A stretch of 32,000 nucleotides of DNA from Halomicronema hongdechloris C2206 (GCF_002075285.3 NZ_CP021983.2:3870001-3902000); one strand, 5' to 3'. Positions 8,919 through 28,121 are shown, numbered from the stretch's first letter. Notes: generated by a model from the letters alone, not told the origin. Translations and numbers: made by a program.

Positions 8919-11582
8919 ATGAACAGGACGCTGCAAATTTACAAGACCTTTCTGCTGGGCCTATTCATCGGTTTGGCCTATGCCCTACTGGTGAGTGGCC
9001 CGCCTGATGCTGTCTTGCCAGAGTGGTTTCAGTATCGGGTGTTTATTCTCACTTTCTCTGGTGTGGTTGGCGGTATTCTCTACACCGTCATGCTGGATGG
9101 CAAGATCGAGATGCCCTATATGAGTGAGGATGGTCGAGATTTGCAAATCGGCATCCTCGGGGATATTCTGCTGGGCATTTCCGGTGCCTATCTGTTAGAT
9201 TTTGTCACTGACTACCCCAGTGACACGAGCCTCAGCAACTTCAATATTCTGTTGGCCGCCAAGGGTATTGTGGGCGGTTACGGAGCTAAGGCCTTGCTAA
9301 ATATGGCTTTAGAGAAGGTACTGAAACGCATCCATCGCATGGAGACGGTAACCCAAGAGGCAGTCCAGAAGAAGCAGGAGCTGTCTCATCAGGTTGAGGA
9401 ACTTAGCGATCAGAATCAATCTCTGACGGAGAGTGGTGAGCTCATCGATCAGGTGAATCTGCAGGTGAATGAAGGGCTGCCATCGCGCCAGCTGGCTGAC
9501 CTAAAGCAACGAATTCGCTCTGCTTCGCCGGACGTGCGGCAGCGGATCTTCGGGTTGGTGAAAGAGATGCGCAGTATGAGCTGGCGTTCCCAGGGACTGC
9601 GCAACCGCACGACTCGTACCATTCCTATTTTTGAGGCGCTGGTGGCCAGCGATGAGAGGTATCATCCCTATCACGCCCAACTCGCCTTTGCCTGCAAAGA
9701 CGCGGTCCCACCGGAATTGGACCGGGCCATTGTGGAGCTGGATCGGGCAATTGAGTTAAGGGGAGAGCAGGAGCAGGCTGCCACCTGGAAGTATGAATTG
9801 AATCGGGCCATTGCACGTATCGAAAAGGAATACAGCGAAACCGGCGGCGTCACCAGTGATCCCTCGCTGCGGGAAGCGATCCTCAAGGATCTGCTGGCGG
9901 TCACCCGCACCCATGGCCTGGCCCAGGTAATCAATCAGGCCGAGGCAGAACAGATTCCGACCCCGATCATGGAGTGGATCGTGCGCAATCAAGATTGGTT
10001 GCGATCGCACCCCGACACCCGCAACCTGATCAACGACGTGTTGCGCACGGTGCCCGGTCGTAATGCCATTGCGGCTGCTCCCAGCGGTCAGGTGAGTCCT
10101 CAGCGTGATGCCGGTAACGGTCCTAGCGTCCAGTCCGGCCCCCCTACCTCCGGCTCCACCATGAGTCCGCCGCCATCTCCGCCCTCTGATGGTGGAGTCG
10201 CCGTACAACCCAAGACGGCCAATCGCTGGGCCTTGGCCCTGGCCCAAGCCCCTACTAACGGGGCCTCAGACCGGACGGCTAGTCAAGACGGCCTCTCGGG
10301 CGGGCTCACCGCCTCCCATAAGATGGCCGAGCGCGATCTTCCTGAGGTGAAGCGCTTGGCCGAGCGCTTCCGTCAGGTGGGGGACCGCGCTGGCATTCCG
10401 CCGGCCTTGATTGCCGCCATCGCCAGCCGCGAATCTCGCTGCGGTAGAGTCTTAGACGCCAATGGCCGCGGCGACCACGGCAATGCCTTTGGCATCATGC
10501 AGGTGGATCAGCGCTATCATACCCAGGCCGGCAGTGACGGCGATCCAGCCAGCCTCGAGCACCTGAGCCAGGGGGTGGGCATTTTGGCCGATGGTCTGCG
10601 GCAGGTGGAGGCTAACCATTCTGATTGGGAAGATCCCTACATCCTCAGAGGTGCGATCGCAGCCTACAACTTCGGCGTCTCCAATGTGCGCACCAAGGCC
10701 GGCATCGATGAGGGCACTACCGGTGACGACTATAGTTCCGATGTCGTGGCCCGGGCCCAGTTCTTCATTCCCCATTTGCTGCTCACGCCGGTAACGGTCT
10801 CCGACCAGAATAACGGCCAGGCCGTCTGGTCGGTGGAGCGCATTGCCGAGACCCTGCAGACGGTAGAAGACGCCATTCCCATCGATGAGTGGGATGAGGC
10901 TATGGCCACCGCCATAAAACAGGGACTAGCCCGGCTCTACCTGTGGACTCCCGGTGCCGATCTGAAGCAGGCCTGGGCCGTCTTCAAACAGAGCATCTAC
11001 CAGAGTGATCCCGACTACATCGGCCCCGGCAGCGTGCGGTTACTGCTGGATGCCCTCGGGGTCGACCATCCGGCCGCCGAGGAATCCGTCCCCGCCGAAG
11101 ACACCCCCACCCAGACCAATCCGGACGCGGGGTCCCAGACCGGCACCTCCAAGCACCTGCCCCATTACAACCAGCTGGTCTATGAGAACGAGTACATCAT
11201 TGCCGGCGTGCCCCTGACCTGGGGTGAGTGTACCAAGGGCATGAGCCGCTGGCCTACCCAGAAGTTGGAAGTGGACAATGGCCGCCGTCTAGCCAAGGTG
11301 TTCGGCGAAGTCCGGGCCGCCTTCGGCGAGCCCCTGATTATCACCTCCGGATTCCGTCCCGAGCCCATCAATCGTCGGGTCGGCGGGGTCAGCAACAGCC
11401 AACATGTTCCCTTTAAGGCCCTGGATATTCGCCCTCTGCGCAGCGCCAATAATGAAGGCTTCGCCCGGTTGCTGCAGATCCTGCGCAATAATCCCAAGGT
11501 GGTCGGCATTGGTCGCGGCCAACGCAAGGGCTTCTTGCACATGGATATCCGGGATGGCCGCCGGGTAGAGTGGGATTATTAA
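8919..11582 (+). CDS. Membrane-anchored multidomain peptidoglycan hydrolase: 4-TM N-terminus, coiled coil, helical region, Pro-rich linker, goose-type lysozyme-like domain, M15 (Peptidase_M15_3-like) zinc peptidase domain
   Basis: Four hydrophobic helices occupy aa 8-130 and a heptad-like region aa 140-200. 'IASRESRCGRVLDANGRGDHGNAFGIMQVDQRYH' (about 10311-10772) matches the G-type lysozyme catalytic region. The C-terminal 'SGFRPEPINRRVGGVSNSQHVPFKALDIRP...GFLHMDIRDG' (about 11181-11573) carries the H-x6-D...H zinc triad of M15 peptidases. Confidence 0.8.
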   Translation: MNRTLQIYKTFLLGLFIGLAYALLVSGPPDAVLPEWFQYRVFILTFSGVVGGILYTVMLDGKIEMPYMSEDGRDLQIGILGDILLGISGAYLLDFVTDYPSDTSLSNFNILLAAKGIVGGYGAKALLNMALEKVLKRIHRMETVTQEAVQKKQELSHQVEELSDQNQSLTESGELIDQVNLQVNEGLPSRQLADLKQRIRSASPDVRQRIFGLVKEMRSMSWRSQGLRNRTTRTIPIFEALVASDERYHPYHAQLAFACKDAVPPELDRAIVELDRAIELRGEQEQAATWKYELNRAIARIEKEYSETGGVTSDPSLREAILKDLLAVTRTHGLAQVINQAEAEQIPTPIMEWIVRNQDWLRSHPDTRNLINDVLRTVPGRNAIAAAPSGQVSPQRDAGNGPSVQSGPPTSGSTMSPPPSPPSDGGVAVQPKTANRWALALAQAPTNGASDRTASQDGLSGGLTASHKMAERDLPEVKRLAERFRQVGDRAGIPPALIAAIASRESRCGRVLDANGRGDHGNAFGIMQVDQRYHTQAGSDGDPASLEHLSQGVGILADGLRQVEANHSDWEDPYILRGAIAAYNFGVSNVRTKAGIDEGTTGDDYSSDVVARAQFFIPHLLLTPVTVSDQNNGQAVWSVERIAETLQTVEDAIPIDEWDEAMATAIKQGLARLYLWTPGADLKQAWAVFKQSIYQSDPDYIGPGSVRLLLDALGVDHPAAEESVPAEDTPTQTNPDAGSQTGTSKHLPHYNQLVYENEYIIAGVPLTWGECTKGMSRWPTQKLEVDNGRRLAKVFGEVRAAFGEPLIITSGFRPEPINRRVGGVSNSQHVPFKALDIRPLRSANNEGFARLLQILRNNPKVVGIGRGQRKGFLHMDIRDGRRVEWDY

Positions 11583-14313: not shown

Positions 14314-15234
14314 CTACCAATAACTGTTCGTTGCCATCAGTAGCCAGACGCCTCGCTGCGTCTGATGACCCCCTAGTTCAGCATTTATTGGCAAAGAGGG
14401 CGGGTAGCGCTCGGGACACACCCGCTGGGGTTGATAAATCTCAGCCTGCCAGCCATAGGCGGCCAATAGCGGCCGGGGATCGTCACAGCCCCAGCGCCAA
14501 TGGCGAATCACCCGCCCCCGATCCTGGTGTCGAGCTCGGCCAGCTGCGGCCAGCGATCCCAGGGTGACTTCATCCAGGCCCAGCTGGCTCTCAGGGGCAC
14601 TCAGGTCTGATATGGCCTGTAATACCGCCTGCAGAGAGGACTCTGGCAGGTACATGGCTACCCCTTCCAGCAGCCATAGGGTAGGTCGCTCCCGCTGGTA
14701 CCCTGCTCGTATCAGCGAGGTGATCCAGTGGCTGGCGGATTCCTCCAGATCGGCATCAATCAGGTGGTGGTCACAGGCGGGCGGCACCGGCCGCAGCATG
14801 GCAGTCTTGTAATTCAGCACCAGGGCATGATCTACCTCATAGAGCTGAGTACCAGCGGGCCAGGTGAGTCGCTAGGCCCTGGTATCGAGACCCGCCCCCA
14901 GAATCACCACCTGGGGAGTACGGCCCTGATGGCAGCTAGCCTGCAGCCAGGCATCAAAGAAATAGGTGCGGATAGCCACATAGCGAGTTCGCTTGCGGAT
15001 AACCTCTGACAGGGGCCGTTGTTGTCGCTGGGCAGTGGCTTGCCATTGAGTCAGCAGGGCGTCGACCTCATGGCCGGCCAGACAAGTGGCATAGGGATCC
15101 TGAAATAGAGCAGGCTGGTGGGTTTGCTCAAAGATGCGCTTAGCCGCCACAATGCGAGCGGTGTAGGGAACGGGAGTGTGCGGCAGTAGGGACACAGCAG
15201 AGCAACGAAGTGTCAAATCAATAGAGGGGGACAC
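14314..15234 (-). pseudogene. SAM-dependent (Leu carboxyl/O-methyltransferase-like) methyltransferase interrupted by one in-frame TAG
   Basis: Track ORFs 14872..15234 and 14314..14820 share a frame. Read through, the junction gives '[34 protein letters not shown]'. The TAG at 14872-14874 sits where this family has Tyr ('[11 protein letters not shown]'). Confidence 0.75.
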
Positions 15235-15438: not shown

Positions 15439-15894
15439 ATGTCCGCCAGCGAACGCCTGCAGTTGATTCAAACCTTGAACCAACTGCCTGCCAGTCAATT
15501 TGAGGAACTCGTCATCGCCCTCAATCCGCCCGCGGGGATCTTGCCGCCTAATGTCGCTGCCCAAGGGCCGCGCCTCAGAGCTACTACACTGGGCCGAGGG
15601 ACCGACGGACCCCAATTGCCCCAATTGCAAGCCATTTTGCAGCAGCTGTTGCCGGCTGATCAGTCGTTTCTAGATGGCGACAATCCGACCCGGCGTCGAT
15701 GCCGTCCACCGGGCAGCTGTCTGTCTCAAGCGACGCTTTTACGAGCGCCAAAAGCTCAGTTAGAGGCGGCCCTGGCGGCGGTTGAGGCAGATTTAGAGAC
15801 GGCACCGCGGCAAGTCGATCGCCTGCGTCTGGAAAAGGAGGCTGAACAGCTGTTGGACAAGATAGAGGCGCTGGATAATACCCTCAATGGCTAG
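15439..15894 (+). CDS. Small adaptor-like protein: N-terminal helical module (effector-associated-domain-like) plus C-terminal coiled coil
   Basis: The N-terminal 'ERLQLIQTLNQLPASQFEELVIALNPPAGILPPNVAAQG' parallels the C-terminus of the TIR protein (24589-24810). The C-terminal 'QLEAALAAVEADLETAPRQVDRLRLEKEAEQLLDKIEALD' parallels the N-terminus of the next gene. It contains an out-of-frame stretch (see findings). Confidence 0.6.
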   Translation: MSASERLQLIQTLNQLPASQFEELVIALNPPAGILPPNVAAQGPRLRATTLGRGTDGPQLPQLQAILQQLLPADQSFLDGDNPTRRRCRPPGSCLSQATLLRAPKAQLEAALAAVEADLETAPRQVDRLRLEKEAEQLLDKIEALDNTLNG

Positions 15895-15966
15895 GAGCAT
15901 ACACAGCACTGGTTAAGGGACTATGATGCAGCTCAATAGTCTAGGGACTCAGATTAACGCTCAATA

Positions 15967-16998
15967 GTGGTAGATCAGAAACAGCGACGACGAGACTTCT
16001 ACACTAAACAGCTGGCCCAGCTAGAGGAAGAACTGGCTGCGGTGGAGTCTGATCTGGAGACGGCGGCTGGGGAGCGGGAGCGATTACGGCTGACGAAAGC
16101 CGCTGAGAGACTACTGGATCAGATCGATGAGCTAGAGGATAAGTTAGCTGCCTGTGATGCTGAGGCATCGGAGCCGGGGATACGCGATCGCAACTTCGAG
16201 AAGGCCCTGCAAAAAATCAACTTCACCCAAGCCAAAGACACCGCCGCCCGCCTCCGCCAGAAGCTTAACCAGCAGGGGGGAGTCGCGCTATTCTTCCTGC
16301 AGGGCAGCAAGCTGCAGATGGGCCACTTCTGCCTAGAAGAGGTGTTGCAGGTGATCTTGAGAGATCACATGATCGATGGTCAGGTGGTCGGAGCCTACCG
16401 CCGCATCTGCGTAGATCTCAACTCCACCATCTCCCAACTCAATGAAACCGAGTTTTTGATGCGGCTGGCCAGCTATTTCAATCTCGACCTAGCTGCCTCG
16501 TCAGACGACAACCTTTTATGCGAACAGATTCACGCCCAGATTCGCACCTCCATTGGCACTGGCACTACCCTTTTTCTAGAGATCAAGAGTCTAGATGAGC
16601 TGCTGGAGCGAGAAACGTTCCTAAAATGGTTTATCCAAGATTTCTGGCAGCCCCTGAGCGAGGAGGTTGCCGTGGCCTCCCAAGACGTCAAGAGCAAATT
16701 CATCGTGGCCCTGATCGCCGACAGCCAAATCCTATCCGACCATACCTCCCCCCAGTATCCCCAAGACGTTTTCTGCCAGGGAGACCGCCTCGACAGCGAC
16801 AAGATCATCAACCTGCCCCTACCCAACTGGTCCGTTGACGACATTCAGACCTGGCTAGTCCGATTTCACCCCCTGTTGCCAAAGCTGCAGCAACAGCAAA
16901 AGACCGCCCTAACCCGAATGGCCAAGCAGATCCACAGAAACAGCGGCAACGGCATTCCCCAGAGCGTGTGCATTAACCTCCAGGAGCTATTTCAATGA
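15967..16998 (+). CDS. Coiled coil plus STAND-like domain with a degenerate P-loop (iSTAND-like); function unknown
   Basis: The 343-aa ORF starts at a GTG directly after a TAA. Its N-terminal coiled coil, 'QLAQLEEELAAVESDLETAAGERERLRLTKAAERLLDQIDELEDKL', is followed by 'GGVALFFLQGSKLQMGHFCLEEVL'. That sits where NTPases have GxxxxGK[ST], but there is no Lys-Ser/Thr. The stop overlaps the MoxR ATG (ATGA at 16995-16998). Confidence 0.6.
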   Translation: MVDQKQRRRDFYTKQLAQLEEELAAVESDLETAAGERERLRLTKAAERLLDQIDELEDKLAACDAEASEPGIRDRNFEKALQKINFTQAKDTAARLRQKLNQQGGVALFFLQGSKLQMGHFCLEEVLQVILRDHMIDGQVVGAYRRICVDLNSTISQLNETEFLMRLASYFNLDLAASSDDNLLCEQIHAQIRTSIGTGTTLFLEIKSLDELLERETFLKWFIQDFWQPLSEEVAVASQDVKSKFIVALIADSQILSDHTSPQYPQDVFCQGDRLDSDKIINLPLPNWSVDDIQTWLVRFHPLLPKLQQQQKTALTRMAKQIHRNSGNGIPQSVCINLQELFQ

Positions 16999-17975
16999 CT
17001 GCAGCCGAGCGCCTGACATTCCACGGGGATGGACGTGCCCCCACCGCTCCCCATCCGGACTCTCCAGAGGTACCGGAACCCTATCTGGTGTCTCAGCCCC
17101 TGCAGAAAGCCGTCAATCTGGCCATCTTCCTGAGACGCCCCCTCTTGCTGGAAGGAGATGCCGGCTGTGGCAAGACCCGTCTGGCCTACAGCGTGGCCTA
17201 CGAACTGGGGCTGCCCCTCTACCGCTGGGACGTGCGCTCTAGTACCAAGGCCCAGGATGGGCTGTATGAGTACGACGCGATTCTGCGGCTCCACGATGTG
17301 GAAGTGCAGAAAGTCCAGGGCGCCCACCCTGCCACCCTTGATAACCCCCCAGACGAGGACGCGATCTCCCCGGAGCGTCGCCACCCCGGCAATCCCAAAC
17401 ACTATCGCCGGTTCGGCCCCTTGGGCAACGCCTTTCGCCTGCGAGATCGCCCCGCTGTCGTCTTGATTGACGAGATCGACAAGGCCGATCTGGACTTTCC
17501 CAACGATTTGCTGACGGTGTTAGATGACCCCTGGCAATTCACCATCCGCGAGACTGGCGAAACCATTACGGCTCACCCAGAGCACAAGCCCATCGTCATC
17601 ATCACCAGCAATAAGGAGAAGGGCAACCTACCGGCCCCCTTTCTGCGGCGCTGCCTATATCGGTATCTAGACTTTCCCGATAGCCCCGAACAACTGCAGG
17701 AAATCGTGCGGCGCCACTATCAACATCGCCAGCAGACGACCCCGGCAGACCCGTTGGTGACGGCCGCCGCCGATAAATTTCTCAGTCAGCGGCGGCAGCG
17801 CAACTGGTTTAAGCCCCCCGGCACCAGTGAATTTCTAGATTGGCTAAAAGCCTTGCACCAATTTGAGGCCAAGCCCTATAGCGTGGCCCAACTGCAGCAG
17901 GATACAATTTTGCCCTATCGAGAAGTGCTGTTTAAGCGCCAAGATGATTGGCGTAACTCGACCCAGGCATCATGA
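16995..17975 (+). CDS. MoxR-like AAA+ ATPase
   Basis: It has Walker A 'GDAGCGKT' (17154-17177), Walker B 'VVLIDEIDKAD', sensor-1 'IVIITSN' and 'PAPFLRRC'. The size of 326 aa and the downstream vWA partner are typical of MoxR. Confidence 0.88.
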   Translation: MTAAERLTFHGDGRAPTAPHPDSPEVPEPYLVSQPLQKAVNLAIFLRRPLLLEGDAGCGKTRLAYSVAYELGLPLYRWDVRSSTKAQDGLYEYDAILRLHDVEVQKVQGAHPATLDNPPDEDAISPERRHPGNPKHYRRFGPLGNAFRLRDRPAVVLIDEIDKADLDFPNDLLTVLDDPWQFTIRETGETITAHPEHKPIVIITSNKEKGNLPAPFLRRCLYRYLDFPDSPEQLQEIVRRHYQHRQQTTPADPLVTAAADKFLSQRRQRNWFKPPGTSEFLDWLKALHQFEAKPYSVAQLQQDTILPYREVLFKRQDDWRNSTQAS

Positions 17976-19072
17976 CCGCATTCGATCCCCAAGCGCTGGT
18001 GTTGCGTACCTTTCTGCAGTTGCGTCGCAGCAATTTCAAGCTGGGGGTGGCAGACTACATGGCCGCCCTGGACGCCGTTGCCGGCGGCTTCGGTGAGGAT
18101 TTAGCCAGCCTGGAAGACACCCTGAAGCTGTTGTGGTGCCACTCGTTGAGTGAGCACAGCCAGTTCCAGCCCATCTGGCAGTCAGTGCACCGTCAAGTCA
18201 AGGCCAACCGCCAACCCAAGCCCCCCTTCCCCGGAGGACGCGAGGCCCCCTCCCGACCCCAAGAGACGGTCCCAGCCAGGCACCAGGCGTCAGAGCCACC
18301 GATGCTCCAACCGCAACCGCCGCCGCCCCCGCCCCGGCGAGCCGCCCTAGGCTCCCTGCCGGTGCAGGCCCCCAGCTTACTCAGCGGCGAAGAAGACACC
18401 ATACCCCTGCAGGCCTACTATCCGATTTCACGGCGGTCCATGGTGTATAACTGGCGCTATCTGCGCCGCCCGGTGGCCGATGGCCCTCAGGATGTGTTGG
18501 ATATCGATGCCACCATCCAGCAAGTGACCCGCCAGGGATTCTATCTGGCCCCCGTCTATGGCCGGCGAGAACGCAATCAGGCCCGATTGCTGTTATTCAT
18601 CGATCACGATGGCTCCATGACGCCGTTTCACCAGTTCACCGGGGACCTGGTGGAGACCGCCCAGCAAGAGAGCCCCCTGGATGCCGAGAACGTCAACGCC
18701 GTCTATTTTCAGAATGTGCCGGCGGGGACTGTCTTTCGCGATGTCTACTTGACCCAATCGATGCCCTTGGCCGCCGCCCTGGGTAGCTGTGACCCCACCA
18801 CCAGCGTGCTCATCGTCAGCGACGGTGGCGCCGCCCGGGGCTATCGTCTGCGAGACCGGGTGCGGAGCACCAGCCGATTTCTGCTGCAGCTGAAACGCCA
18901 TACCAGCCTGGTGGCCTGGCTCAACCCCATGCCAAGGCGGCGCTGGGTGGGAAGCTCCGCCGAAATCATCGCCCACTCAGTCCCCATGTTTCAGATGGAT
19001 AGCGACGGACTCAATAACGCCATTGATGTGGTGCGGGGGCAGCCCCTGAAGCACACCTACTCGGCATCTTGA
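17972..19072 (+). CDS. vWA (von Willebrand factor A, CoxE-like) domain protein
   Basis: Its ATG overlaps the MoxR stop (ATGA). After a helical N-terminus and a Pro-rich linker comes 'LLLFIDHDGSMTPF' (MIDAS-like DxDGS, 18602-18619), then '...VLIVSDGGA'. It has the usual position 3' of MoxR. Confidence 0.8.
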   Translation: MTAFDPQALVLRTFLQLRRSNFKLGVADYMAALDAVAGGFGEDLASLEDTLKLLWCHSLSEHSQFQPIWQSVHRQVKANRQPKPPFPGGREAPSRPQETVPARHQASEPPMLQPQPPPPPPRRAALGSLPVQAPSLLSGEEDTIPLQAYYPISRRSMVYNWRYLRRPVADGPQDVLDIDATIQQVTRQGFYLAPVYGRRERNQARLLLFIDHDGSMTPFHQFTGDLVETAQQESPLDAENVNAVYFQNVPAGTVFRDVYLTQSMPLAAALGSCDPTTSVLIVSDGGAARGYRLRDRVRSTSRFLLQLKRHTSLVAWLNPMPRRRWVGSSAEIIAHSVPMFQMDSDGLNNAIDVVRGQPLKHTYSAS

Positions 19073-20709
19073 CCATGGCCGCCGCCCCCTCCCCATGGCC
19101 GGAACCCGCCGACAGGGTGGACCAGTTTGTGGCTCGCTTTGGCAATGAGGCCTATCGCTCCCTGGCCTACCATGCCGCCTTGCCCCTGGTGCTGACGCCG
19201 GAACTGGTGCATTACCTGCGGATTCAATGTTTGCGAGCAGACCATGTGCCCTGGGAAGCCGAGGTGGATCTGCTGCTGTCTGACCTCTGCCGCCAGGTGG
19301 GCTATGAGCTTTACACCATGGATACCCAAGTGCGGGCATACCTGCTGGCCGAAATTAAAGACGACCCGGTCTGGCAACATCGCCTGCAGGAAGTGGCCCA
19401 GGTATTGATCAGCTATGTCAGCTATTTGAGCCGCGTCGATCCCCAGCGTCGCCCAAGAGAGCTAGAGGCGCAACGACTGGCCGCCATGACCTACCTGGGA
19501 GATGAGCACTGCCAGGCAGCCGTGCAAGACATCGGCCATCGCTTCCAGCACTTGGCAGATCAGGCCAGGGCGGAGGGAGCATCAGACCAGAGCATCCGGG
19601 CGGAGCTGGCCTATCTGAGCCGTATCACTCAGGAACTGGCCCCCCAACTGACACGGCACCCAGAGCTGGTGGAGCTGGCCCAGCTGGTGCAACGACTACT
19701 GCGCCACCCAGAGGCGGTGACCCCCGCCGACAGGGCGCGCACATTTCGGGTGGGAGACGCTGACATCCGCCCCAGTGTCTTTCCCTTGAGATTCTCCTCT
19801 GGGGAAGACGAAACCACCCCGACGGGGATGCCCCCTTTAAGGACGCTGGAGTTTGAGACAGGCCAGTTCGTTCAGCCAGAGGCGGGGGTACCTGCCTTAG
19901 AGGCGCAAACGGTGGAGGTGGTGACCCTGGAGTTTGAGGAGGCCAATACAGATTCAGGCCCTATCTCAGGAGAGCCAACATTAGTTTTGGGAGTGTATGG
20001 ATGGGATAAAGTAAGCGAGACCAAGACACCAAATGTGGAGTTAGACTGGCAAGAATACTGCGATCGTACTACCCGCCAAGTTCCAACTCCAGATACGTGG
20101 GATAGCATTCTATTTCCGCAGTTGCAGCAAGCAAAACAAACTCTGATTCAGATATCCTCCTCCCGATACATTTACCTCTTGGGAAATTGCCCCCTCACCA
20201 TGAGTCTGGCCATTGGTTTTACATTTCCTTACGTGGCTGGATATAAGTTTCGTTTGAAGCAATTCACTGGCGGGGAAATGGCCTTTTGGGAGTCTTCTGC
20301 CTCCCCCTCTGAAGCCCAACTTGAGGTCATTCAAGAACAGGGCACAGGAGGAAGCAACCTTATCTTTGCCATTGGGATCAGCGTAAGCATATGGAAGGAT
20401 GTGCAGCAGTTTCAGGAGAGGAATCAAGACCAATTCAATGCTTTAGTGTATGCTGAGCCAAAACAAGGGACAGGACAACGAACTTTAAAATCTGATAAAG
20501 ATGCTGTGGCATTGGCACTTCATGCCAAGGAGCTGATGCATCTATGTCGTCAAAAATATGAAGCGGAAAGCATTCATCTTATTTTTGCTTGCCCAGCAGC
20601 CTTCTCCTTATTCCTAGGGCAGCGACTCAACGCCTTGGGATTGATTATGGCTTATGAACGAACTCAGGATGGCAGCTATCAAATCTCGGTAATACTGAGA
20701 ACAGGCTAA
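19069..20709 (+). CDS. vWA-MoxR-associated protein: helical N-terminal domain plus C-terminal SAVED-like (tandem CARF-like) domain
   Basis: The start is a TTG at 19069 overlapping the vWA stop, or an ATG at 19075. The N-terminus reads 'FVARFGNEAYRSLAYHAALPLVLTPELVHYLRIQCL...PWEAEVDLLLSDLCRQVGYELYTMD'. From about aa 302 (19972) there are two alpha/beta halves, each with a 'hhhhG.CP...SLhhG' element: 'IYLLGNCPLTMSLAIGFTF' and 'IHLIFACPAAFSLFLGQRLN'. The C-terminal 'YER...GSY' resembles SAVED domains. This is by-eye assignment only. Confidence 0.6.
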   Translation: MTMAAAPSPWPEPADRVDQFVARFGNEAYRSLAYHAALPLVLTPELVHYLRIQCLRADHVPWEAEVDLLLSDLCRQVGYELYTMDTQVRAYLLAEIKDDPVWQHRLQEVAQVLISYVSYLSRVDPQRRPRELEAQRLAAMTYLGDEHCQAAVQDIGHRFQHLADQARAEGASDQSIRAELAYLSRITQELAPQLTRHPELVELAQLVQRLLRHPEAVTPADRARTFRVGDADIRPSVFPLRFSSGEDETTPTGMPPLRTLEFETGQFVQPEAGVPALEAQTVEVVTLEFEEANTDSGPISGEPTLVLGVYGWDKVSETKTPNVELDWQEYCDRTTRQVPTPDTWDSILFPQLQQAKQTLIQISSSRYIYLLGNCPLTMSLAIGFTFPYVAGYKFRLKQFTGGEMAFWESSASPSEAQLEVIQEQGTGGSNLIFAIGISVSIWKDVQQFQERNQDQFNALVYAEPKQGTGQRTLKSDKDAVALALHAKELMHLCRQKYEAESIHLIFACPAAFSLFLGQRLNALGLIMAYERTQDGSYQISVILRTG

Positions 20710-20739
20710 TTCTAATTCCTCCTAATCAATCCTGACACT

Positions 20740-21057
20740 TCAATGGGTGTCACTGCGTTTGCTGTCCTCTTGCGACGGGGACTCATCTTTCCAGGGTTCA
20801 ATGGCCCTGAAGAGATACTCTCCGGCGGGGGTGCGTGTCATCCGTATCACGTACTGCCCACCGACAGCTATGCCAGACTTTGTAGGGCTATGGATGTGGA
20901 AGGCAAAGGTCTGACCAGAGAACTGCCCTGCCATGACGGCATCAACGTCTAGGACGGCCACCCACTTCAAGTGCGGGTGGGGACTGCGCTGTGGCCTTAG
21001 CGCGGTGATGACACCACGCAGCACCACATCTTCGTCATTGTTGTTATTGTCTGACAT
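20740..21057 (-). CDS. Small hypothetical protein (105 aa), possible partner or immunity protein of the upstream DUF4157 protein
   Basis: The ATG is preceded by a GAGAGGA-type RBS. It lies 131 nt downstream of 21189..22439 on the same strand and looks beta-rich. I do not recognise the family. Confidence 0.45.
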   Translation of the reverse strand: MSDNNNNDEDVVLRGVITALRPQRSPHPHLKWVAVLDVDAVMAGQFSGQTFAFHIHSPTKSGIAVGGQYVIRMTRTPAGEYLFRAIEPWKDESPSQEDSKRSDTH

Positions 21058-21188
21058 AGTGGGGTCCTCTCACGCTACCAGGGACTGCTCCATGGTGCCA
21101 GGAAGGTGACGGTGGATAGAAGACAGGGTCGGCGCATAGACAGCATCGGGTCCCACAGCTTTAGTAGAGCAACCGATAAGGTTCAAGG

Positions 21189-22439
21189 CTACGGACAGAT
21201 ACGATTCAGGGCAGCCAGGGCGGCTTGCAAAAACCGACGCTCCCAGCGGTAAGAATTCACCTCGTCCTGGGCCCAGTCGTGGCCGTCCTGCCACTGGGCT
21301 TCGAAGGCTGCTACTTCAGCGGGGAAGGTAGCCCGCAGGGTATCTAGCCGATTGGGGACTCCTGCCAGCCGCTTCCACTCGCGGAAGAAAGCTGATCCTT
21401 GAGCCCGCGCGATGTCATTCGTATGGCGAGCATGCATGGTCTCATGGACGAAGGTAGCTTTGTCATCGATGCGCTGGCAGGGATCAGCCGATGGCGGTGG
21501 TAGCGTAATTGTGCCACTGGCACTGGTGGAGCCAGCTACGGTAGTACCGGGATGGGCAGCATCGAAGCAGGCTTCAACATCAACGTTGGTCGGATTGGCC
21601 GGAACGTCACAGGCGGCATAGGTCGCCGCTGCAGTATTGGCCCAATTAATTCCATCCCGCACCTGCTGGCGGCATCCACACATACTGTGTGTGACGGGTA
21701 GTCCCCAGACTCTCTCGCTAGTAGGCGGCGATGGGGACTGTCGTTGGATTCTATGGCTGGATCCCTGGGCTGCCGGTTCAATCCTGTGGTCTCCATGCCT
21801 GGCAAGAGCACCACCTTGCTGCACAACATGGGCCAATTCATGGGCCATCAAAAAACGGGCACGTCCACTTCCTGAAGATAATCGGTCGTTATCCAAGACA
21901 ACGTGCTGGCCCACTGTATACCCCTGCGCATTGATCGCTTGTGCTGACTCTGCCGCTTTCGCATCCGTGTGCACTCGCACTTGGCTGAAATCATGCCCAA
22001 AACGTGGCTCCATAAAGCTGCGGGTGTGGGCATCCAGGGGCTGGCCGGGTGAGCGCAATACTTCGTGGACGATGGGCAGTGCTGAAATCTGTTCCTCGTT
22101 GTTCGACTGAAGGCGCCGCAGTTGTAGGCGCATTGGTTTCTGCTCCGGTCGCTGTGCCTGACACTGGGGACAGCCACCACCACAGGCACAGGTGCGCTGC
22201 AGCTTGGGATCAGGCATGCGAATCACTTGGTTCGCAACACGATCTGCCTCCTGTTCATAGATGTCTCCAGGCTGGTCGATCGTGAGTTTCGTCTGTAGTG
22301 CTCCTGGATGTGGACGATGACACTGCGGGGGCAACTCATGCCGCTGGATCCGACTGGATATCGTAGGCTTGATCGCAGGCTTGGCAGATGTAATCTGCTG
22401 AGTTGCCCTTGATTTCTGTGCAAAAGTACCCATGGCCAA
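21189..22439 (-). CDS. DUF4157 (eCIS-core-type, zincin-like) domain protein with an unknown Cys-containing C-terminal domain that carries a second HExxH
   Basis: 'DIYEQEADRVANQV', 'LQRTCACGGGCPQC' and 'VHEVLRSPGQPLDAHTRSFMEPRFGHDFSQVRVHTDAKAAESAQAINAQGYTVGQHVVL...LMAHELAHVVQQ' form the canonical DUF4157 signature, with HELAH at 21828-21842. A second 'HETMH' lies at 21432-21446. Confidence 0.85.
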   Translation of the reverse strand: MAMGTFAQKSRATQQITSAKPAIKPTISSRIQRHELPPQCHRPHPGALQTKLTIDQPGDIYEQEADRVANQVIRMPDPKLQRTCACGGGCPQCQAQRPEQKPMRLQLRRLQSNNEEQISALPIVHEVLRSPGQPLDAHTRSFMEPRFGHDFSQVRVHTDAKAAESAQAINAQGYTVGQHVVLDNDRLSSGSGRARFLMAHELAHVVQQGGALARHGDHRIEPAAQGSSHRIQRQSPSPPTSERVWGLPVTHSMCGCRQQVRDGINWANTAAATYAACDVPANPTNVDVEACFDAAHPGTTVAGSTSASGTITLPPPSADPCQRIDDKATFVHETMHARHTNDIARAQGSAFFREWKRLAGVPNRLDTLRATFPAEVAAFEAQWQDGHDWAQDEVNSYRWERRFLQAALAALNRICP

Positions 22440-22569: not shown

Positions 22570-23070
22570 TTGGGTTCTGAGGTTCCTAACCGTTGGAGGT
22601 TTAAGGTTTGCGTCATGGCTTCTTGCTCACCGACTATGGGGAATCACCGTGGGGCAATCCCAAGCGATAGACGGGGCCAACCCCCAGGGCATCGGCCCGA
22701 TAGATCTAGCTCCGGGTATAGCGGGAGATGGCCCATGTATCGTGGGTCGTGCGATATTGTTATGCCAGGCAAATCCATTGATACCATTGGGTTTTAGTAT
22801 GAGCCCGGAGCGTGGGTCGTGTTGCGGGCATAGGATAACCAGTTGTCGCCTGGGAAATGACCCGCGCTCCCCCGTGGGATGGCCATTGATTGTATGAGGG
22901 ATACCCCATGGATGGCGGGGTGGGGTGTGCGATCGCATCATGGCCATAAATCTGTTGGCACGTGTTGCCCGGAGCATGGGGCCTTTCGGGGCCGGGGGAT
23001 AACTAGTTGTCGAGTGGGCAATGACCCACGCTCCGATGTGGGATACCTTATCAGTAACCCATTGCCTCCC
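22570..23070 (+). pseudogene. Tentative: several decayed fragments of the C-terminal tail of FGE-sulfatase domains (no intact ORF)
   Basis: Stitching + strand frames gives three tail-like pieces: 'YRGSCDIVMPGKSIDTIGF*' (ends 22797), 'PGAWVVLRA*DNQLSPG/NDPRSPVGWPLIV' (about 22806-22897), and 'VLPGAWGLS...DN*LS/CRVGNDPRSDVGYLIS' (about 22965-23056). They are comparable with the family tail 'RGGSW...CRSAYR...P..R...IGFRVV'. Units two and three are recognisably repeated at the DNA level, 164 nt apart. Confidence 0.35.
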
Positions 23071-23079
23071 TGAGCCACT

Positions 23080-23579
23080 GTGGTAGAGCTGATACTCCGT
23101 AAAGAGCGTAAACGAGCTCGCTATTTTACCGAATCCCTGGGCGATCAGATTGGCCTGGATATGATATTGGTACCCGGCGGCACGTTCCTGATGGGTTCGC
23201 CAGAGGATGAGCCTGAGCGGATTGACCGCGAGGGACCACAGCATCAGGTGACGGTGCCTGCTTTTTTCATGGGGCGATATCCGGTGACCCAGGCTCAGTG
23301 GTAGGCAGTGGCCGCACTGCCTCAGGAATCGCGGCAACTAACTCCAAATCCTTCTAGGTTCAAGGGAGACAGTCGCCCGGTTGAGCAAGTCTCCTGGTAC
23401 GACGCAGTGGAGTTTTGCGATCGCATCAGCCGTCATACTGGTCGCGCCTATCGGCTACCCAGCAAAGCCGAGTGGGAATATGCCTGTCGAGCCGGCACAG
23501 CCGCTCTGCCTATCGCTACAGCGATGATCCCCATGGAGCCTTCAATGATATTGGGTTTCGGGTGGTGTGTGTTGCCTGA
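23080..23579 (+). pseudogene. FGE-sulfatase (formylglycine-generating-enzyme-like) domain gene with an in-frame TAG and an internal deletion or frameshift
   Basis: 'LDMILVPGGTFLMGSPEDEPERIDREGPQHQVTVPAFFMGRYPVTQAQW' is followed by a TAG at 23302-23304. It continues in frame as '[51 protein letters not shown]'. From about 23502 the family tail '[25 protein letters not shown]' is in another frame, so the middle of the domain is missing. Confidence 0.75.
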
Positions 23580-23769
23580 AGTGCGATCGCAACATTCTCG
23601 GCTTGGCGGCAGACATGAGCACTCCTCTCTGGTTTCTAGCCAACCATTGCCAAGGGCCTGAGCATAACTGAGCGAAGGTGCGATCGCACCATTGCTGAAA
23701 ACCCACCAGCAGTATGGCACCCCCCTTAGCAGCTGAGTAAGATGGGGACAACATCCCCCCACCGCTGCC

Positions 23770-24813
23770 GTGAAAGACTTTTTCATCAGTTACAACAGCG
23801 CCGATAAAGCCTGGGCTGAGTGGCTTGCCTGGGTGTTAGAGGAAAACGGATATACAGTAATCATTCAAGCCTGGGACTTTCGCCCTGGCGGCAACTTCAT
23901 TATCGACATGCAGCGAGCGGCAGACGAGTCGACGCGCACCATCATGGTGCTCTCCGAGGTCTATCTGCAAGCCAAGTACACCCAGCCGGAGTGGGCTGCG
24001 GCATTCAAACAAGATCCTGAATCCCAGGAACATAGGCTGATTCCTATCCGAGTTGCACCCTGTCAGCCGACCGGAATGTTGGCACCGCTGGTCTATGTGG
24101 ACTTAGTTGGCAAAAGCGAAGCCGATGCCGAAGCATCCGTGCTGGCCTCCTTGCAAAACCGAGCTAAGCCAGCGACGCGCCCCAGCTTTCCTGGAAAGAC
24201 TCCGGGTGAGGAGCGAGTTGTCAAGAAAAAAGTTCCATTCCCGCCTGGAAGGTCAATTCGAGTGACTTGGCAACTTGTGCTTGACTATCAGCTTGAGAAT
24301 ACCTTTTTTGATCACGGTCGTGATATTGACAGGGTGGTTGATCGGTTGAAGCAACTCTCTGGAGATCAGCGCCTAGAGGATGTGGATAGAGTGTGCAAAA
24401 ACGGCAGCACCTTCCTGACGCTTAAAGGAACAGAGGAGGGGCTGAGGAAGCTTCAAGCACTTTCTGAAACAGGACAGTTGGCTGAGATAAACGGAATACA
24501 AGTCGAACAAATCAACTTACCGCCTGACTCCTCTCAAACACCGCCGATAACGCAGAATCCTCCAATGACGAATGAATCGACGACGCTGACACCGCGAGAG
24601 CGCTTAGCCTTGAATCGTAAGATTACCGGGCTTACGACTCAGTCGTTTAACGAGTTGTTGCTACTGCTTGAACCGCCTGATGGAATAGTGCCGCCACCAA
24701 CTGCACCTCAGGGCGATCGTACCTATGCCTTGCTGAGTTGGGCGCGAAGTACCACCGGCTGTGGCCTGGCCGCCGTGCGCGATGCCTTCAACGAGATTGC
24801 CCCTTCCCCTTAG
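23770..24813 (+). CDS. TIR domain protein with a central unknown module and a C-terminal helical adaptor (effector-associated-domain-like) module
   Basis: After a GTG start, 'KDFFISYNSADKAWAEWLAWVLEENGYTVIIQAWDFRPGGNFIIDMQRAADESTRTIMVLSEVYLQAKYTQPEWAAAF...LIPIRV' is a bacterial TIR_2-type domain. The C-terminal 74 aa (24589-24810) match the N-terminus of the 15439 gene. Confidence 0.85.
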   Translation: MKDFFISYNSADKAWAEWLAWVLEENGYTVIIQAWDFRPGGNFIIDMQRAADESTRTIMVLSEVYLQAKYTQPEWAAAFKQDPESQEHRLIPIRVAPCQPTGMLAPLVYVDLVGKSEADAEASVLASLQNRAKPATRPSFPGKTPGEERVVKKKVPFPPGRSIRVTWQLVLDYQLENTFFDHGRDIDRVVDRLKQLSGDQRLEDVDRVCKNGSTFLTLKGTEEGLRKLQALSETGQLAEINGIQVEQINLPPDSSQTPPITQNPPMTNESTTLTPRERLALNRKITGLTTQSFNELLLLLEPPDGIVPPPTAPQGDRTYALLSWARSTTGCGLAAVRDAFNEIAPSP

Positions 24814-24860
24814 CTGCCTCTTCGGATTCGGATGGCACTGCCCCGGAGAGGCCTTGGCTG

Positions 24861-27214
24861 GTGCCCCTAGACCGCAACCCCTGTTTTACTGGACGAGCGT
24901 CGATACTGGAGCAGATACGTCAGGCGCTCACCGCTAGAGGCACCGCCGGATTAACCCAGGTGCAGGCCATTGCCGGCCTCGGAGGTGTCGGCAAGACCCA
25001 AACCGCTCTGGAATATGCCTATCGCTACTACTGGGATGTAAACAGGGACGAGGCCTATCAGGCGGTCTTCTGGATTCGGTTAGATACAGAGCAAGCGCTT
25101 CAGAGTGGCTTTCAAGAGATCGCTGAAATGCTGATGCTCTGTGAGGCAGCGGTGAAAGAGGCGGACCAGATCGTGCGGGTGGTCAAGACCTGGTTAGCAG
25201 AGCACACAGGCTGGCTGCTGGTGCTAGACAATGCCGATGACCCCAGTTTTATCAGGAATTATCTGCCCAAGCGGGGACAGGGTCATGTGCTGATTACCTC
25301 CCGGGTGCAAGACCTGCAACGCCTGGGGGTGATTCAACCGCTATCGCTGGATGCCCTGAACCCTGAGGAGGCGGTGGCCTTTTTGCTGCAGCGGACAGGC
25401 CGCGAGGCTGCTAGCCAAGCAGCCCAGAGGGCAGCTGAGGCACTATCGGCGGAACTGGGCCATTGCCGTTGGCCCTGGAACAGGCTGGTGCTTACATGGT
25501 CACCACAGGTGCTGGCTTTCAAGACTATCTCGCCAGCTATCGGCATCGCCGTTTGGACCTGCTGAACCAAGCCGCCCCCATCATGGGCGACTATCCCGAT
25601 TCCGTAGCCACTACCTGGAATATCAACGTTGAAGCGATAGCAGCGGAATCTCTGGCAGCTACCGATCTCCTACGGGCCAGTGCCTTTCTCCATGCCGACG
25701 GCATTCCCTACGACCTGATCGTGTCGGGAGCCAGGGAGTTAGGGGAGGCGATTCAGCAGCACCTGGCAGAGGTTGAGAATGACCCCCTGGCCTTTTTGAC
25801 CCTGCTGGAACCCTTGAAGCGATATTCCCTGGTGCGCCCCGAAGCGTCGGAGCAGACCTACAGCGTTCACCGTCTGGTACAGGCTGTGGTGAAGACCAAC
25901 CTGGGGGAAGCGGCTGCCAGACAATGGGCGGAGCGGATCGTGCGGGTGGTGACCCAGGCTTACCCCAATGCCGATGACTTCAACAACTGGCCGGAATGCC
26001 AGCGATTGCTCCTCCACGCCCAGGCGGCAGCAACCGCCGTCCAACACTACCGTTTTGACTTTTCCGAAGCCGGCCTGCTGCTGATTCGGCTGGGATTTTA
26101 TGCCCAAGAGAGAGGGGAATACTCAACCGCTGACCCCCTTTACCTGCAGGGATTAGAGATATATAAAAAAGCCTTGGGCGATGAGCATCCCCATGTGGCC
26201 CTCAGCCTCAACAATCTCGCCTTTCTGTATAAATCGCAGGGCCGCTACGCCGAGGCGGAACCGCTCTATCAGCAGGCCCTGGCCTTGTGGCAACGGCTAT
26301 TGGGCGACGAGCATCCCGATGTGGCCAGCAGCCTCAACAATCTCGCCGCACTGTATGACTCGCAGGGCCGCTACGCCGAGGCGGAACCGCTCTATCAGCA
26401 GGCCCTGGCGTTGCGGCAACGGCTGTTGGGCCAGGAGCATCCCGCTGTGGCCCTCAGCCTCAACAATCTCGCCGCACTGTATCGAGTGCAGGGCCGCTAC
26501 GGGGAGGCGGAACCGCTCTTGCAGCAGGCCCTGGCCTTGCGGCAACGGCTGCTGGGCGACGAGCATCCCGATGTGGCCCTCAGCCTCAACAATCTCGCCT
26601 TACTGTATTATGCGAAGGGCCGCTACGCTGAGGCGGAACCGCTCTATCAGCAGGCCCTGGCGTTGGGTCAACGGCTGTTGGGCCAGGAGCATCCCGCTGT
26701 GGCCCTCAGCCTCAACAATCTCGCCGCACTGTATTATTCGCAGGGGCGCTACGCCGAGGCGGAACCGCTCTATCAGCAGGCCCTGGCGTTGAGGAAACGG
26801 CTATTGGGCGACGAGCATCCCGCTGTGGCCCTCAGCCTCAACAATCTCGCCGCACTGTATCAATCGCAGGGTCGCTACGCCGAGGCGGAACCGCTCTTGC
26901 AACAGGCTTTCCAGATTAGCCGAAACGCTTTAGGAGACAATCATCCCGACGTGGGCATTTGCTTGGGTAATTTAGCCTCCCTGTACGTTGCCCAAGGGCG
27001 TTATTCTGACGCGGAACCGTTGTTTCTAGAGGCGTTGAGCCTCTTTGTGCAGGCTGTAGGGCAAGACCATCCCTACACCACAGAGACGATTAATCGCCTT
27101 GCTAAGTTTGTCAGGACGGTTATTGAAGCAGGCCAGACTCAGCTCCTCTCTGACCATCCCGTCACCCAAGCCCTGCTCCAGCAGCTGCAGTCCCCGTCAG
27201 CCAAGGGCTCGTGA
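24861..27214 (+). pseudogene. NB-ARC (STAND) NTPase with kinesin-light-chain-type TPR array, split by a 1-nt frameshift
   Basis: Frame A reads 'NPCFTGR...IAGLGGVGKTQTALEYA' (Walker A), 'LLVLDNADD' (Walker B) and 'VLITSR', up to 'ALSAELGH'. Frame B continues from 25463 with 'LPLALEQAGAY' and eight 42-aa TPRs. The junction 'GGC CAT TG' (25458-25465) would read G-H-L-P-L-A-L-E with one more T. The start is uncertain: a GTG at 24861, or further upstream where frame A is open from 24738 and overlaps the TIR gene. Confidence 0.8.
26084..27091 (+). repeat. Eight tandem 126-nt units encoding 42-aa TPR_10/12-type repeats, the central ones nearly identical at the DNA level
   Basis: 'NNLAALY.SQGRYAEAEPLYQQALALRQRLLG.EHP.VALSL' recurs every 42 aa. 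Long identical nucleotide runs such as 'ggccgctacgccgaggcggaaccgctctatcagcaggccctggc' occur in several units. Confidence 0.9.
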
Positions 27215-27236
27215 GTGGCCTGTCACCTCGACTCCG

Positions 27237-27338
27237 CTCGGTGAGCGGTTGTGGCTCGGTGACCAGTTGTGGCTCGGTGACCGGTTGTGGCTCGGTGAGC
27301 GGTTGTGGCTCGGTGAGCGGTTGTGGCTCGGTGAGCGG
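27237..27338. repeat. 18-nt tandem repeat 'CTCGGTGAGCGGTTGTGG', about 5.7 copies
   Basis: Units begin at 27237, 27255, 27273, 27291, 27309 and 27327 (the last partial), with variants GACCAG/GACCGG. The array starts 22 nt after the stop of the STAND gene. Confidence 0.9.
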
Positions 27339-27468
27339 CTTGTCCTGAGCTGTGTCGCAGGGAGTCGAACCGAGCCTGTCGACAGTCTTCCCCAAATAGA
27401 ATTCCCAGAGTCGAGGTTACCCTCTACCTGGATTCCGGGTGGCGCTGCGCTTGGGTTCCCCTCCATCC

Positions 27469-27698: not shown

Positions 27699-28121
27699 AA
27701 GTAGTAGCGAGTAACGGGTGCCAAGTTTAAGGAAACAGGGAACAGGAAAATGCCCCTCGCTCCCTTGCCGATGCGACGCGATTTATCACCACTAATCGAC
27801 AACCCCTTCCGCGGGTCCAGGGCAGCGGTTTGCCCTGGTCGTAGGGGTCCGGGGGAAGCGAAATTCCCCCGGGCGAGCACTCCACGCGACACAATTAAGT
27901 GTGGCCTTACCGAAATCTACCACCACACCCTGACCAGCCTTGCCACAGCTCCAGGGCAGTCATTCAACCAGCCTGTCCTGAGCAACGCCGAAGGGCTCAC
28001 CACAAAAGTGACCCACACCCCTATCATGTCTTGCCCGGAATGACGGGACTCGTTTCTACGGTTGTTCAGTTGCCTAAAAGACCCTCATTCTCGTCATTCC
28101 CGCGGCGGCGGGAATCCAGAG
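27693..28121 (+). repeat. Copy A of a dispersed 320-430 bp non-coding element that ends in a perfect hairpin
   Basis: It begins 'CCTAGGAAGTAGTAGCG' and ends '...TCTTGCCCGGAATGACGGGACTCGTTTCTACGGTTGTTCAGTTGCCTAAAAGACCCTCATTCTCGTCATTCCCGCGGCGGCGGGAATCCAGAG'. The hairpin is ATTCCCGC-GGCG-GCGGGAAT at 28096-28115. It carries about 110 extra nt (roughly 27845-27955) relative to copy B. Confidence 0.85.

Follow-up and report, generated by a model that had tools for sequence, protein, structure and literature searches.

How did one intact reading frame come to join two halves of such different base composition? The question is raised by a gene on the chromosome of Halomicronema hongdechloris C2206, within a stretch of 32 kb that we analysed as a whole and call the window. 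The gene, an open reading frame (ORF) of 546 amino acids at 19069-20709 on the + strand, was 100% identical to XM38_036890, its reading frame was intact, and it encodes a helical N-terminal half (the N module) followed by a C-terminal SAVED domain. A first-pass annotation of this DNA had proposed that a sharp drop in guanine plus cytosine (GC) content inside the ORF marked a SAVED-like module that was recently swapped in. We put the probability at about 0.9 that the gene is a mosaic, in which a 3' part encoding an FGE-sulfatase-like domain of C-type-lectin fold (FGS) was replaced in frame by a SAVED-encoding tract; composition, the switch in homology and the orthologous loci all supported the replacement, while the word "recent" is only loosely constrained.

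The compositional break and the seam

The features on which the argument turns are these, each with its basis in parentheses.

19069-19944, + strand: resident N module, aa 1-292 of the mosaic protein (homologues at 58-65% identity; GC 0.62, GC at third codon positions, GC3, 0.72)
19943-19945, + strand: seam (last base colinear with the orthologous operons, and GC change-point)
19945-20709, + strand: incoming module, an inter-domain linker plus SAVED, aa 293-546 and stop codon (Pfam and similarity to TIR-SAVED; GC 0.46, GC3 0.435)
19945-20744, unstranded: whole low-GC tract of 800 bp, the minimal extent of the replaced DNA (two-change-point fit)

Four 60-nt samples that had been counted by hand in the first-pass annotation were recomputed, and their GC values were reproduced exactly (0.55, 0.733, 0.433 and 0.40). 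The maximum-likelihood estimate of a single change-point in the ORF was nt 19945 (aa 292/293), which confirmed an abrupt switch and moved it 15-35 nt upstream of the 19,960-19,980 at which it had been placed. On the 5' side of 19945 the GC content was 0.624 (0.72, 0.43 and 0.72 at first, second and third codon positions), and on the 3' side it was 0.458 (0.53, 0.41 and 0.435). A fit with two change-points delimited a tract at 19945-20744 with a GC content of 0.453, between a left flank of 0.629 and a right flank of 0.578; with these limits, the tract reaches from the start of the SAVED coding part to about 35 nt past the stop codon.

The log-likelihood ratio for a change-point in this ORF was 23.0, while 500 codon shuffles reached no more than 10.0 (mean 2.5), and the 17 other long ORFs of the window gave values of at most 4.7 in 16 cases and 12.5 in the remaining one. 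Sliding-window and codon-position profiles showed the break to be abrupt and not gradual, with the largest GC step between adjacent windows anywhere in the 32 kb (0.17) located at 19962. A GC content below that of the interval 19972-20709 (0.458) was seen in just 0.16% of the 738-nt windows, the lowest of which (0.453) began at 19980, within the low-GC tract. In GC3, too, the SAVED half (0.435) was lower than all other gene-like segments that were measured in the window (0.50-0.76).

A drop of this kind could be intrinsic to SAVED or to the 3' ends of genes, through amino acid content or codon selection, with no transfer having occurred, or it could be an assembly chimera. In three of the four orthologous genes that join the N module to an FGE-sulfatase (the N-FGE genes, described below), GC3 does fall toward the 3' end, from 0.66-0.73 to 0.54-0.59, and in the fourth (L009) it goes from 0.69 to 0.67. 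However, this change is gradual in the orthologues, whose log-likelihood ratios were 2.9-6.1 as opposed to 23, and the nearest TIR-SAVED genes (GC3 0.53-0.57; ratios 0.9-1.6) have no internal break. Moreover, the difference lies in GC3 and was kept at residues identical to those of homologues (0.44-0.45 in the SAVED half, with 0.51-0.54 in its relatives; 0.71 in the N half, with 0.72-0.77 in its orthologues), and it is therefore not an effect of amino acid composition. As for a chimera, the genome was assembled from mixed technologies, with low-coverage contaminant contigs discarded (PMC6416890), but two false joins only 800 bp apart would be needed, one of them in frame at a domain linker, and no common repeat was present at the join. 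We consider explanations without transfer extremely improbable. The low GC content marks different histories of the two halves and gives no date.

The position of the seam was also obtained from alignment. A single blastn alignment with the operon of Leptolyngbya sp. LCM1.Bin17 (L012) ran colinearly for 4.2 kb, from 15734 to 19943, and then ended; the alignment with another orthologous operon (L007) likewise ended at 19943, so that the end of colinearity and the GC change-point (19945) were 2 nt apart. Nucleotide similarity to TIR-SAVED DNA began at 19966-19972 and continued to the stop codon. A three-way nucleotide comparison showed that the 22-nt variable linker between the end of colinearity and the start of this similarity was already low in GC. 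The fusion at the seam is in frame, with '...TLEFEEA' followed directly by 'NTDSGPISGEPTL...', and at the protein level '...QTVEVVTLEFEEA' is joined to 'NTDSGPISGEPTLVLGVYGWD...'. The part of the TIR-SAVED proteins that could be aligned started in their inter-domain linker ('DRQPTKTLEEPMLSLGVYGWD') and extended to the final residue, which indicates that the incoming piece comprised the linker, the whole SAVED domain and the stop codon. The regulator gene that lies beside TIR-SAVED in L001 and L005 had no counterpart in the window, and the similarity stopped at the stop codon.

No direct or inverted repeats flanked the low-GC tract, and the only repeat near its junctions was an internal 16-nt duplication coding for 'TLEFE', at 19842-19857 and 19923; the first copy sits 81 nt upstream of its seam-side counterpart. 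Separately, the 46 nt that precede the seam (19898-19943, '...ACGGTGGAGGTGGTGACCCTGGAGTTTGAGGAGGC') were 89% identical to L007, compared with about 70-72% across the operon. Local conservation of the DNA where the modules meet could facilitate recombination at the left end of swapped cassettes.

Two further observations concern composition in the window at large. The second-strongest internal GC step was found in the ORF at 8919-11582 (+), with a change-point near 9474, a log-likelihood ratio of 12.5, and a rise in GC from 0.50 to 0.62 and in GC3 from 0.61 to 0.72; this step is milder than that of the SAVED gene and is partly an amino-acid effect, in a product of 887 aa that has SLT and Peptidase_M15 domains as well as a transmembrane/coiled-coil N-terminus. 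The highly iterated palindrome HIP1 (GCGATCGC) occurred 13 times in the window against 0.63 expected, and four of these copies were clustered at 22929-23687, around an FGE-sulfatase pseudogene. We considered this palindrome as a marker of host DNA, but with no copies in the low-GC tract and only about 0.3 expected there, it was uninformative.

Two halves with separate relatives

Homology searches made separately with the two halves returned disjoint sets of proteins. Among 5.8 billion protein clusters, the N half alone was matched by 115 cyanobacterial proteins (44-67% identity), of which 107 carried a C-terminal FGS; the others ended in GUN4, in EAD8-trypsin, in an unidentified tail or in nothing, being short or partial. 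SAVED was absent from all 115, the N module was absent from all 148 SAVED representatives, and the 5.8 billion clusters held no full-length homologue of the mosaic protein except itself. For most of the N-module homologues, similarity to the query ended at aa 285-299, and beyond the motif 'QTVEVVTLxFE', at one and the same boundary, we found FGS, EVE-FGS (P0064), TIR-FGS (P0086), CHAT-TIR-FGS (P0113), AAA_35-FGS (P0022), GUN4 (P0097) and EAD8-trypsin (P0011). The join in the mosaic gene falls at this usual module boundary of the family, whose fusion to different C-terminal modules is in keeping with the module replacement that had been proposed for the gene.

The division into a helical N-terminal region, a linker and an alpha/beta C-terminal domain, which had been read from the sequence by the first-pass annotation, agreed with structure models. 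The N module was predicted to be all-alpha over aa 10-225 (predicted local distance difference test, pLDDT, of about 90), with a low-confidence linker at aa 240-300; the conserved linker after the all-alpha domain reads 'FETGQFV...QTVEVVTLEFE'. This module had no Pfam match even at E 10, no sequence match in the PDB, and no significant fold match in the PDB (the best Foldseek hits, at E 0.46, were generic helical repeats).

The C-terminal module, described earlier as SAVED-like, was matched by Pfam SAVED (PF18145) over aa 353-539 with an E value of 3.8e-20 and 72.8 bits, against a curated cutoff of 26.2, and the PADLOC model of the CBASS type (cyclic-oligonucleotide-based antiphage signalling system), SAVED_PDDEXK, covered aa 301-546 (E 2.3e-67). 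An AlphaFold2 model of this half (pLDDT 95.8, predicted template-modelling score 0.92) placed an alpha/beta SAVED fold at about 305-546, for which the best Foldseek matches included the Cap4 structure 7yib (E 1e-14, query template-modelling score, TMq, of 0.75 over 261 columns) and TIR-SAVED bound to cyclic triadenylate (cA3), 7qqk (TMq 0.71). Judged from this model, the SAVED domain is a complete, two-lobed (fused CARF-like) alpha/beta fold, and all of the invariant columns of the SAVED family were retained in the mosaic protein.

The closest relatives of this half were four TIR-SAVED proteins of 409-413 aa (P0009, P0010, P0012 and P0032), which matched the C half only, at 62-67% identity; for P0009 and P0012 the identity from their linker to their last residue was 65-67% in amino acids and 67-68% in nucleotides. 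When 1.84 billion representatives were searched exhaustively by HMMER with the C half alone, the TIR-SAVED cluster was found at 66% and the next best match at 44%. The top 50 SAVED relatives were ordinary effector-SAVED proteins, including 13 with TIR, 6 with CHAT and 6 with the Cap4 nuclease.

An iSTAND-type MoxR-vWA conflict operon of five genes ends with the mosaic ORF, whose four predecessors are as follows.

15439-15894, + strand: operon gene 1, a 151-aa adaptor in which an unnamed, helix-rich EAD-like segment precedes a C-terminal EAD9 (Pfam, L007)
15967-16998, + strand: EAD9-iSTAND protein, the defining third component (Pfam iSTAND, EAD9)
16995-17975, + strand: MoxR-type AAA+ ATPase (Pfam AAA_5 and AAA)
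17972-19072, + strand: CoxE-type vWA protein (Pfam VWA_CoxE, E 2.3e-9)

All four of these genes are intact; the stop codon of the vWA gene overlaps the start of the mosaic gene, and the MoxR and vWA genes overlap as well. The iSTAND assignment was above the curated cutoff (PF19995, E 4.8e-26) and was accompanied by EAD9 at E 1.1e-8, while the EAD9 match of the adaptor (E 1.5e-4) was under its curated cutoff. The adaptor was 52% identical to aa 175-322 of the TIR-EAD9 protein of L007, and its orthologues are TIR-EAD9 proteins of 228-325 aa, the TIR of which is missing from the gene in the window. We assign the operon to the iSTAND ternary systems and the C half of its last gene to the SAVED family.

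Orthologous operons were available from four sources (L007/L008, L009/L010, L011 and L012), with identities of 76-77% for MoxR, 65-66% for vWA, 55% for iSTAND and 58-62% for the N module. Their order was TIR-EAD9, EAD9-iSTAND, MoxR, vWA and N-FGE-sulfatase; that is, L007 and L009-L012 had the same order as the operon in the window but ended in N-FGE-sulfatase. The N module is the resident, vertically colinear part of the mosaic gene, and the tract that took the place of the earlier DNA, from 19944/19945 to about 20744, is that of a TIR-SAVED-type gene. Since the lineage is sparsely sampled and the nearest orthologue of the N half was only 65% identical, the uniqueness of the fusion dates the event poorly.

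The downstream region and the origin of the tract

Downstream of the mosaic gene, the window contains the following features.

20740-22439, - strand: variable spacer with a 105-aa ORF and a 416-aa eCIS_core/DUF4157 protein (Pfam eCIS_core, E 4.4e-29)
23086-23591, + strand: stand-alone FGE-sulfatase gene (about 273 aa when intact), now a pseudogene (tblastn, neighbour-joining tree, synteny)
23770-24813, + strand: TIR-TRADD_N-EAD protein of 347 aa (Pfam TIR_2, E 2e-34; TRADD-like_N, E 5e-4, the latter under its curated cutoff)

Both spacer genes are convergent with the operon; the 105-aa ORF had no family match, and the 416-aa protein contains an HExxH motif (toxin-like). No proteins of L007-L009 matched 20740-22439, neither spacer gene was found in the orthologous loci, and the spacers of those loci contained instead a Y1 transposase, ParE or a 211-aa gene.

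The FGE-sulfatase remnant beyond the spacer offers a different account of the gene, in which an insertion of some 3.1 kb (19945 to about 23085) interrupted an ancestral N-FGS gene and displaced its C-terminus to 23086-23591. N-FGE proteins do align to 19069-19983 and to 23092-23499, in the same reading frame and at 63-64% identity. However, tblastn showed the fragment to be closer to the 273-aa stand-alone proteins (67-68%) than to the FGE part of N-FGE (63-64%); a neighbour-joining tree grouped it with the stand-alone genes, and an intact stand-alone FGE-273 orthologue sits downstream of N-FGE in L007-L010 and L012, so that synteny and tree match. The fragment directly follows a stop codon and has a GTG start, its beginning aligns as 'VVELILRKERKRARYF' against 'MPNLVFRRETKQARYF' from residue 3 of the 273-aa proteins, and the 'FxFEVATI' extension found ahead of FGS in N-FGE proteins is missing from it. 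In addition, only 19945-20744 of the supposed block is compositionally aberrant. Such an insertion is thus very improbable in our judgement. The lesions of the pseudogene are an in-frame stop at about 23302 ('QAQW*AVA') and, at about 23499, the loss of about 100 codons together with a frameshift.

Full-length homologues of the TIR-TRADD_N-EAD protein (P0122-P0127) were found at 56-72% identity and 99% coverage, and the EAD-like segment of the 151-aa adaptor recurs at its C-terminus (24577-24792, 40% identical to aa 172-243 of the L007 protein). On the basis of this common segment, it is likely to be an effector recruited through it, and the recurrence of the segment suggests that the TIR effector was uncoupled onto a separate gene, 8 kb downstream of the TIR-less first gene of the operon. 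We also considered whether this TIR (23770-24249) and the SAVED half could be the split halves of one TIR-SAVED gene, as the TIR was 61% identical to that of the same TIR-SAVED proteins. This idea was ruled out by the full-length homologues and by the many TIRs that are closer (70-77%), and was contradicted also by GC3, which was 0.60 in the TIR gene against 0.435 in the SAVED tract; the TIR gene is resident.

Several other features lie within or at the edges of this block of conflict genes, which extends from about 15.4 to 29.7 kb. An NB-ARC/TPR STAND NTPase gene at 24738-27214 (+) consists of two overlapping ORFs, with a frameshift at about 25455-25465 in the GLPL motif, where one frame reads '...AELGH' and another 'GPLPLALEQAGAY'; either the gene has become a pseudogene or the break is a homopolymer sequencing error. 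About seven tandem units of 18 nt (GCTCGGTGA[G/C]CGGTTGTG) occupy 27218-27356, right after the stop codon of the TPR gene. Direct repeats at 27730-28121 and 29071-29329 (172 nt at 95% identity and 93 nt at 74%) bracket a low-GC segment with overlapping ORFs at 28433-28750 (no family match) and 28741-28980 (DUF2283), which looks like a small mobile or toxin-antitoxin-like cassette between repeats resembling miniature inverted-repeat transposable elements. A tRNA-Leu(CAA) at 29692-29774 (+) forms the right edge of the block and is a typical island boundary. At the left edge, the leucine carboxyl methyltransferase gene at 14314-15234 (-) is seemingly split into 14872-15234 and 14314-14820, possibly by another frameshift or as a pseudogene.

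The nearest relatives of the SAVED tract point to CRISPR loci, since the P0009 and P0012 genes directly adjoin type III-B Cas10/Cmr2 and RAMP genes. Type III CRISPR has been reported in strain C2206, the genome of which has a GC content of 54.6% (PMC6416890), and the host protein XM38_021480 (P0391) was the third-best match in the whole database to the Cas10 associated with TIR-SAVED. This Cas10/Cmr2 of 518 aa is 74% identical over 92% of the query, with an intact GGDD motif ('YAGGDDF') and no HD domain. In Leptolyngbya sp. CCNP1308 (L013), the Cas10 of which is 81% identical, large CRISPR arrays are found where related loci carry TIR-SAVED, which indicates that TIR-SAVED is a variable accessory of this Cas10 clade. 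These arrays lie at 6558-8424 and 17105-21100 of L013, with the repeat CTTCCCACTCGCTGGGAAA..AATTGAATGGAAAC.

One may ask whether the tract came from within the genome, that is, whether the host's own type III-B accessory TIR-SAVED was moved or copied into the iSTAND operon; in a variant of this account, TIR-SAVED was once immediately downstream and a single deletion fused the N module to SAVED. The low GC content would then be the composition of a CRISPR island and would imply no recent arrival in the genome. Consistent with such an origin, the host has elsewhere a Cas10 of the exact clade that carries TIR-SAVED (74% identical), the divergence of SAVED (66%) is of the same order as that of Cas10 (74%), TIR-SAVED comes and goes in the clade as an accessory (it is absent from L013, with its CRISPR arrays), no intact TIR-SAVED from this host turned up in the homology searches, and related type III-B loci have GC contents of 0.48-0.55, at or under the host average of 54.6%. 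Yet the tract (GC 0.453, GC3 0.435) lies under any related type III-B locus that we read, and no orthologous iSTAND locus had a downstream TIR-SAVED gene. We regard an internal origin as unlikely.

As to how FGS would have been replaced by SAVED, two routes can be proposed. The replacement may have occurred by illegitimate or short-homology recombination with incoming DNA, or a TIR-SAVED gene may first have been inserted immediately downstream, and a later deletion would then have taken out the FGS and TIR portions. The source could have been a cyanobacterium of lower GC content or an accessory gene of the type III-B CRISPR system in the host itself.

Several points weigh against the replacement and against the function that we propose for it below. 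The nearest TIR-SAVED genes have GC3 values of 0.53-0.57, not 0.435, and are thus relatives of the tract and not its donor. No donor closer than 66-67% in amino acids or 68% in nucleotides was found in collections of genome contigs, metagenomes, viruses and plasmids (the best plasmid match of the SAVED tract by tblastn was 43.6%), so that the direction and timing of the replacement were deduced from parsimony and composition. Composition was also the sole criterion for the right-hand limit of the replaced DNA. The FGE pseudogene and the NB-ARC frameshift indicate that the locus may be decaying. Finally, no nucleotide cyclase (Cas10 or CD-NTase) is present within the 32-kb window, and the host Cas10 XM38_021480 lies elsewhere in the genome than the window, as judged by its locus tag.

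Predicted function and meaning of the replacement

In the iSTAND class of MoxR-vWA systems, which occur in cyanobacteria, the vWA side carries a highly variable module that is mostly FGS (Kaur et al. 2020, PMC7159879). That study names SAVED once, among the nucleotide-binding domains of VMAP-type systems (PMC7159879). The operon in the window resembles these systems in its MoxR AAA+ ATPase, CoxE-type vWA protein, EAD9-iSTAND protein and EAD-coupled effectors (TIR), in the presence of EAD9 on the core component and on a neighbouring adaptor (TIR-EAD9 in the orthologues), and in having FGS as the commonest variable module, which matches the 107 of 115 homologues of the N module. It differs in that the variable module, instead of being fused to vWA, is encoded on a separate ORF that overlaps the stop codon of the vWA gene, in the conserved all-alpha N module that lacks a Pfam family, in SAVED as the module, and in a first gene without TIR. 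No other iSTAND-operon protein with SAVED was present among the 115 N-module homologues, among the 148 SAVED representatives or in PMC7159879.

In the characterised TIR-SAVED protein, cA3 glues the SAVED domains into a filament, which activates the N-terminal domain (Hogrel et al. 2022; PDB 7QQK). The mosaic protein has in common with the TIR-SAVED proteins of type III CRISPR and CBASS a whole SAVED domain, at 62-67% identity to cyanobacterial proteins adjoining Cas10/Cmr2, but it lacks TIR (no match in aa 1-300) and carries SAVED on a non-enzymatic helical module. As its N half belongs to the N-module family of iSTAND operons, the mosaic protein is not a member of TIR-SAVED, and only its SAVED half is of that lineage. 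Similarly, it shares with the CBASS nuclease-SAVED protein Cap4, with SAVED-CHAT and with CalpL a C-terminal SAVED fold (best PDB matches Cap4 7yib and 6vm6) and a logic of ligand-induced oligomerisation that activates the upstream fusion partner; unlike in these proteins, to which identity was only 17-20%, the partner is not a nuclease, protease or TIR, and there is no adjacent cyclase.

From these likenesses we propose that the last gene of the operon supplies a variable ligand-binding or effector module, and that SAVED in the mosaic protein would bind cyclic oligoadenylate (cOA), most probably cA3, or another cOA made by the host Cas10. Oligomerisation of SAVED driven by the ligand would then act on the N module and thereby nucleate or release the vWA-MoxR-iSTAND switch, which would recruit the TIR-TRADD_N effector through EAD9 and the common EAD-like segment. 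We offer this cOA-sensing function as a tentative prediction from homology. A further step, that the swap has made the iSTAND/MoxR-vWA "apoptosis-like" system serve the host's type III-B CRISPR as an ancillary effector arm, is rather unlikely. In such a chain of events, cOA produced by the RNA-guided Cas10 would be bound by the N-SAVED protein and cause it to oligomerise, the vWA-MoxR-iSTAND switch would trip, and TIR-TRADD_N would be recruited through EAD contacts.

The fusion could also be real and yet inert or neutral, an accidental in-frame join in a decaying island with a SAVED domain that would neither respond to a signal nor govern the iSTAND machinery, or SAVED might merely sequester cOA. 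That the neighbours are broken (the FGE-273 pseudogene and the NB-ARC frameshift), that the first operon gene is without the TIR of its orthologues and that the architecture occurs in one strain only would fit such an accident. Against it, the frame of 546 codons is intact, and the join preserved a standard module boundary, a complete SAVED domain and the native linker; the invariant SAVED columns were kept in a fold predicted with very high confidence, and the four upstream genes of the operon are intact. We consider an inert fusion quite unlikely, and the replacement of an FGS module by a SAVED tract, taken together with the mechanism and function outlined here, appears to us the probable explanation overall.

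Like other mosaic genes of defence islands, this one combines an in-frame replacement at a linker and a compositional scar with mobile or decayed neighbours and a tRNA-Leu boundary. It is set apart from them by a seam that was placed within 2 nt by two independent criteria and by an ancestral state that is documented in more than 100 relatives. The locus thus provides a clean natural record of the diversification of a defence system, in which one junction has been reused for at least seven other module combinations; if SAVED is inert in the mosaic protein, this record would be one of well-documented cassette shuffling only.

To our knowledge, no function has been established experimentally for iSTAND/MoxR-vWA systems. 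The presence of SAVED in their variable slot provides a defined, purchasable candidate ligand (cA3 or another cOA) with which to trigger an iSTAND system, and, because the host carries a matching type III-B Cas10, it leads to the concrete and testable idea that CRISPR signalling may engage in cross-talk with a STAND-EAD-TIR cell-suicide network. The swap may thus wire two immune systems together. If this is true, the gene would represent a natural cross-wiring of CRISPR second-messenger signalling with a STAND/Death-like adaptor network, and the C-terminal position of the last gene of the operon would be a sensor slot, as FGS, GUN4, EVE and SAVED are all ligand binders.

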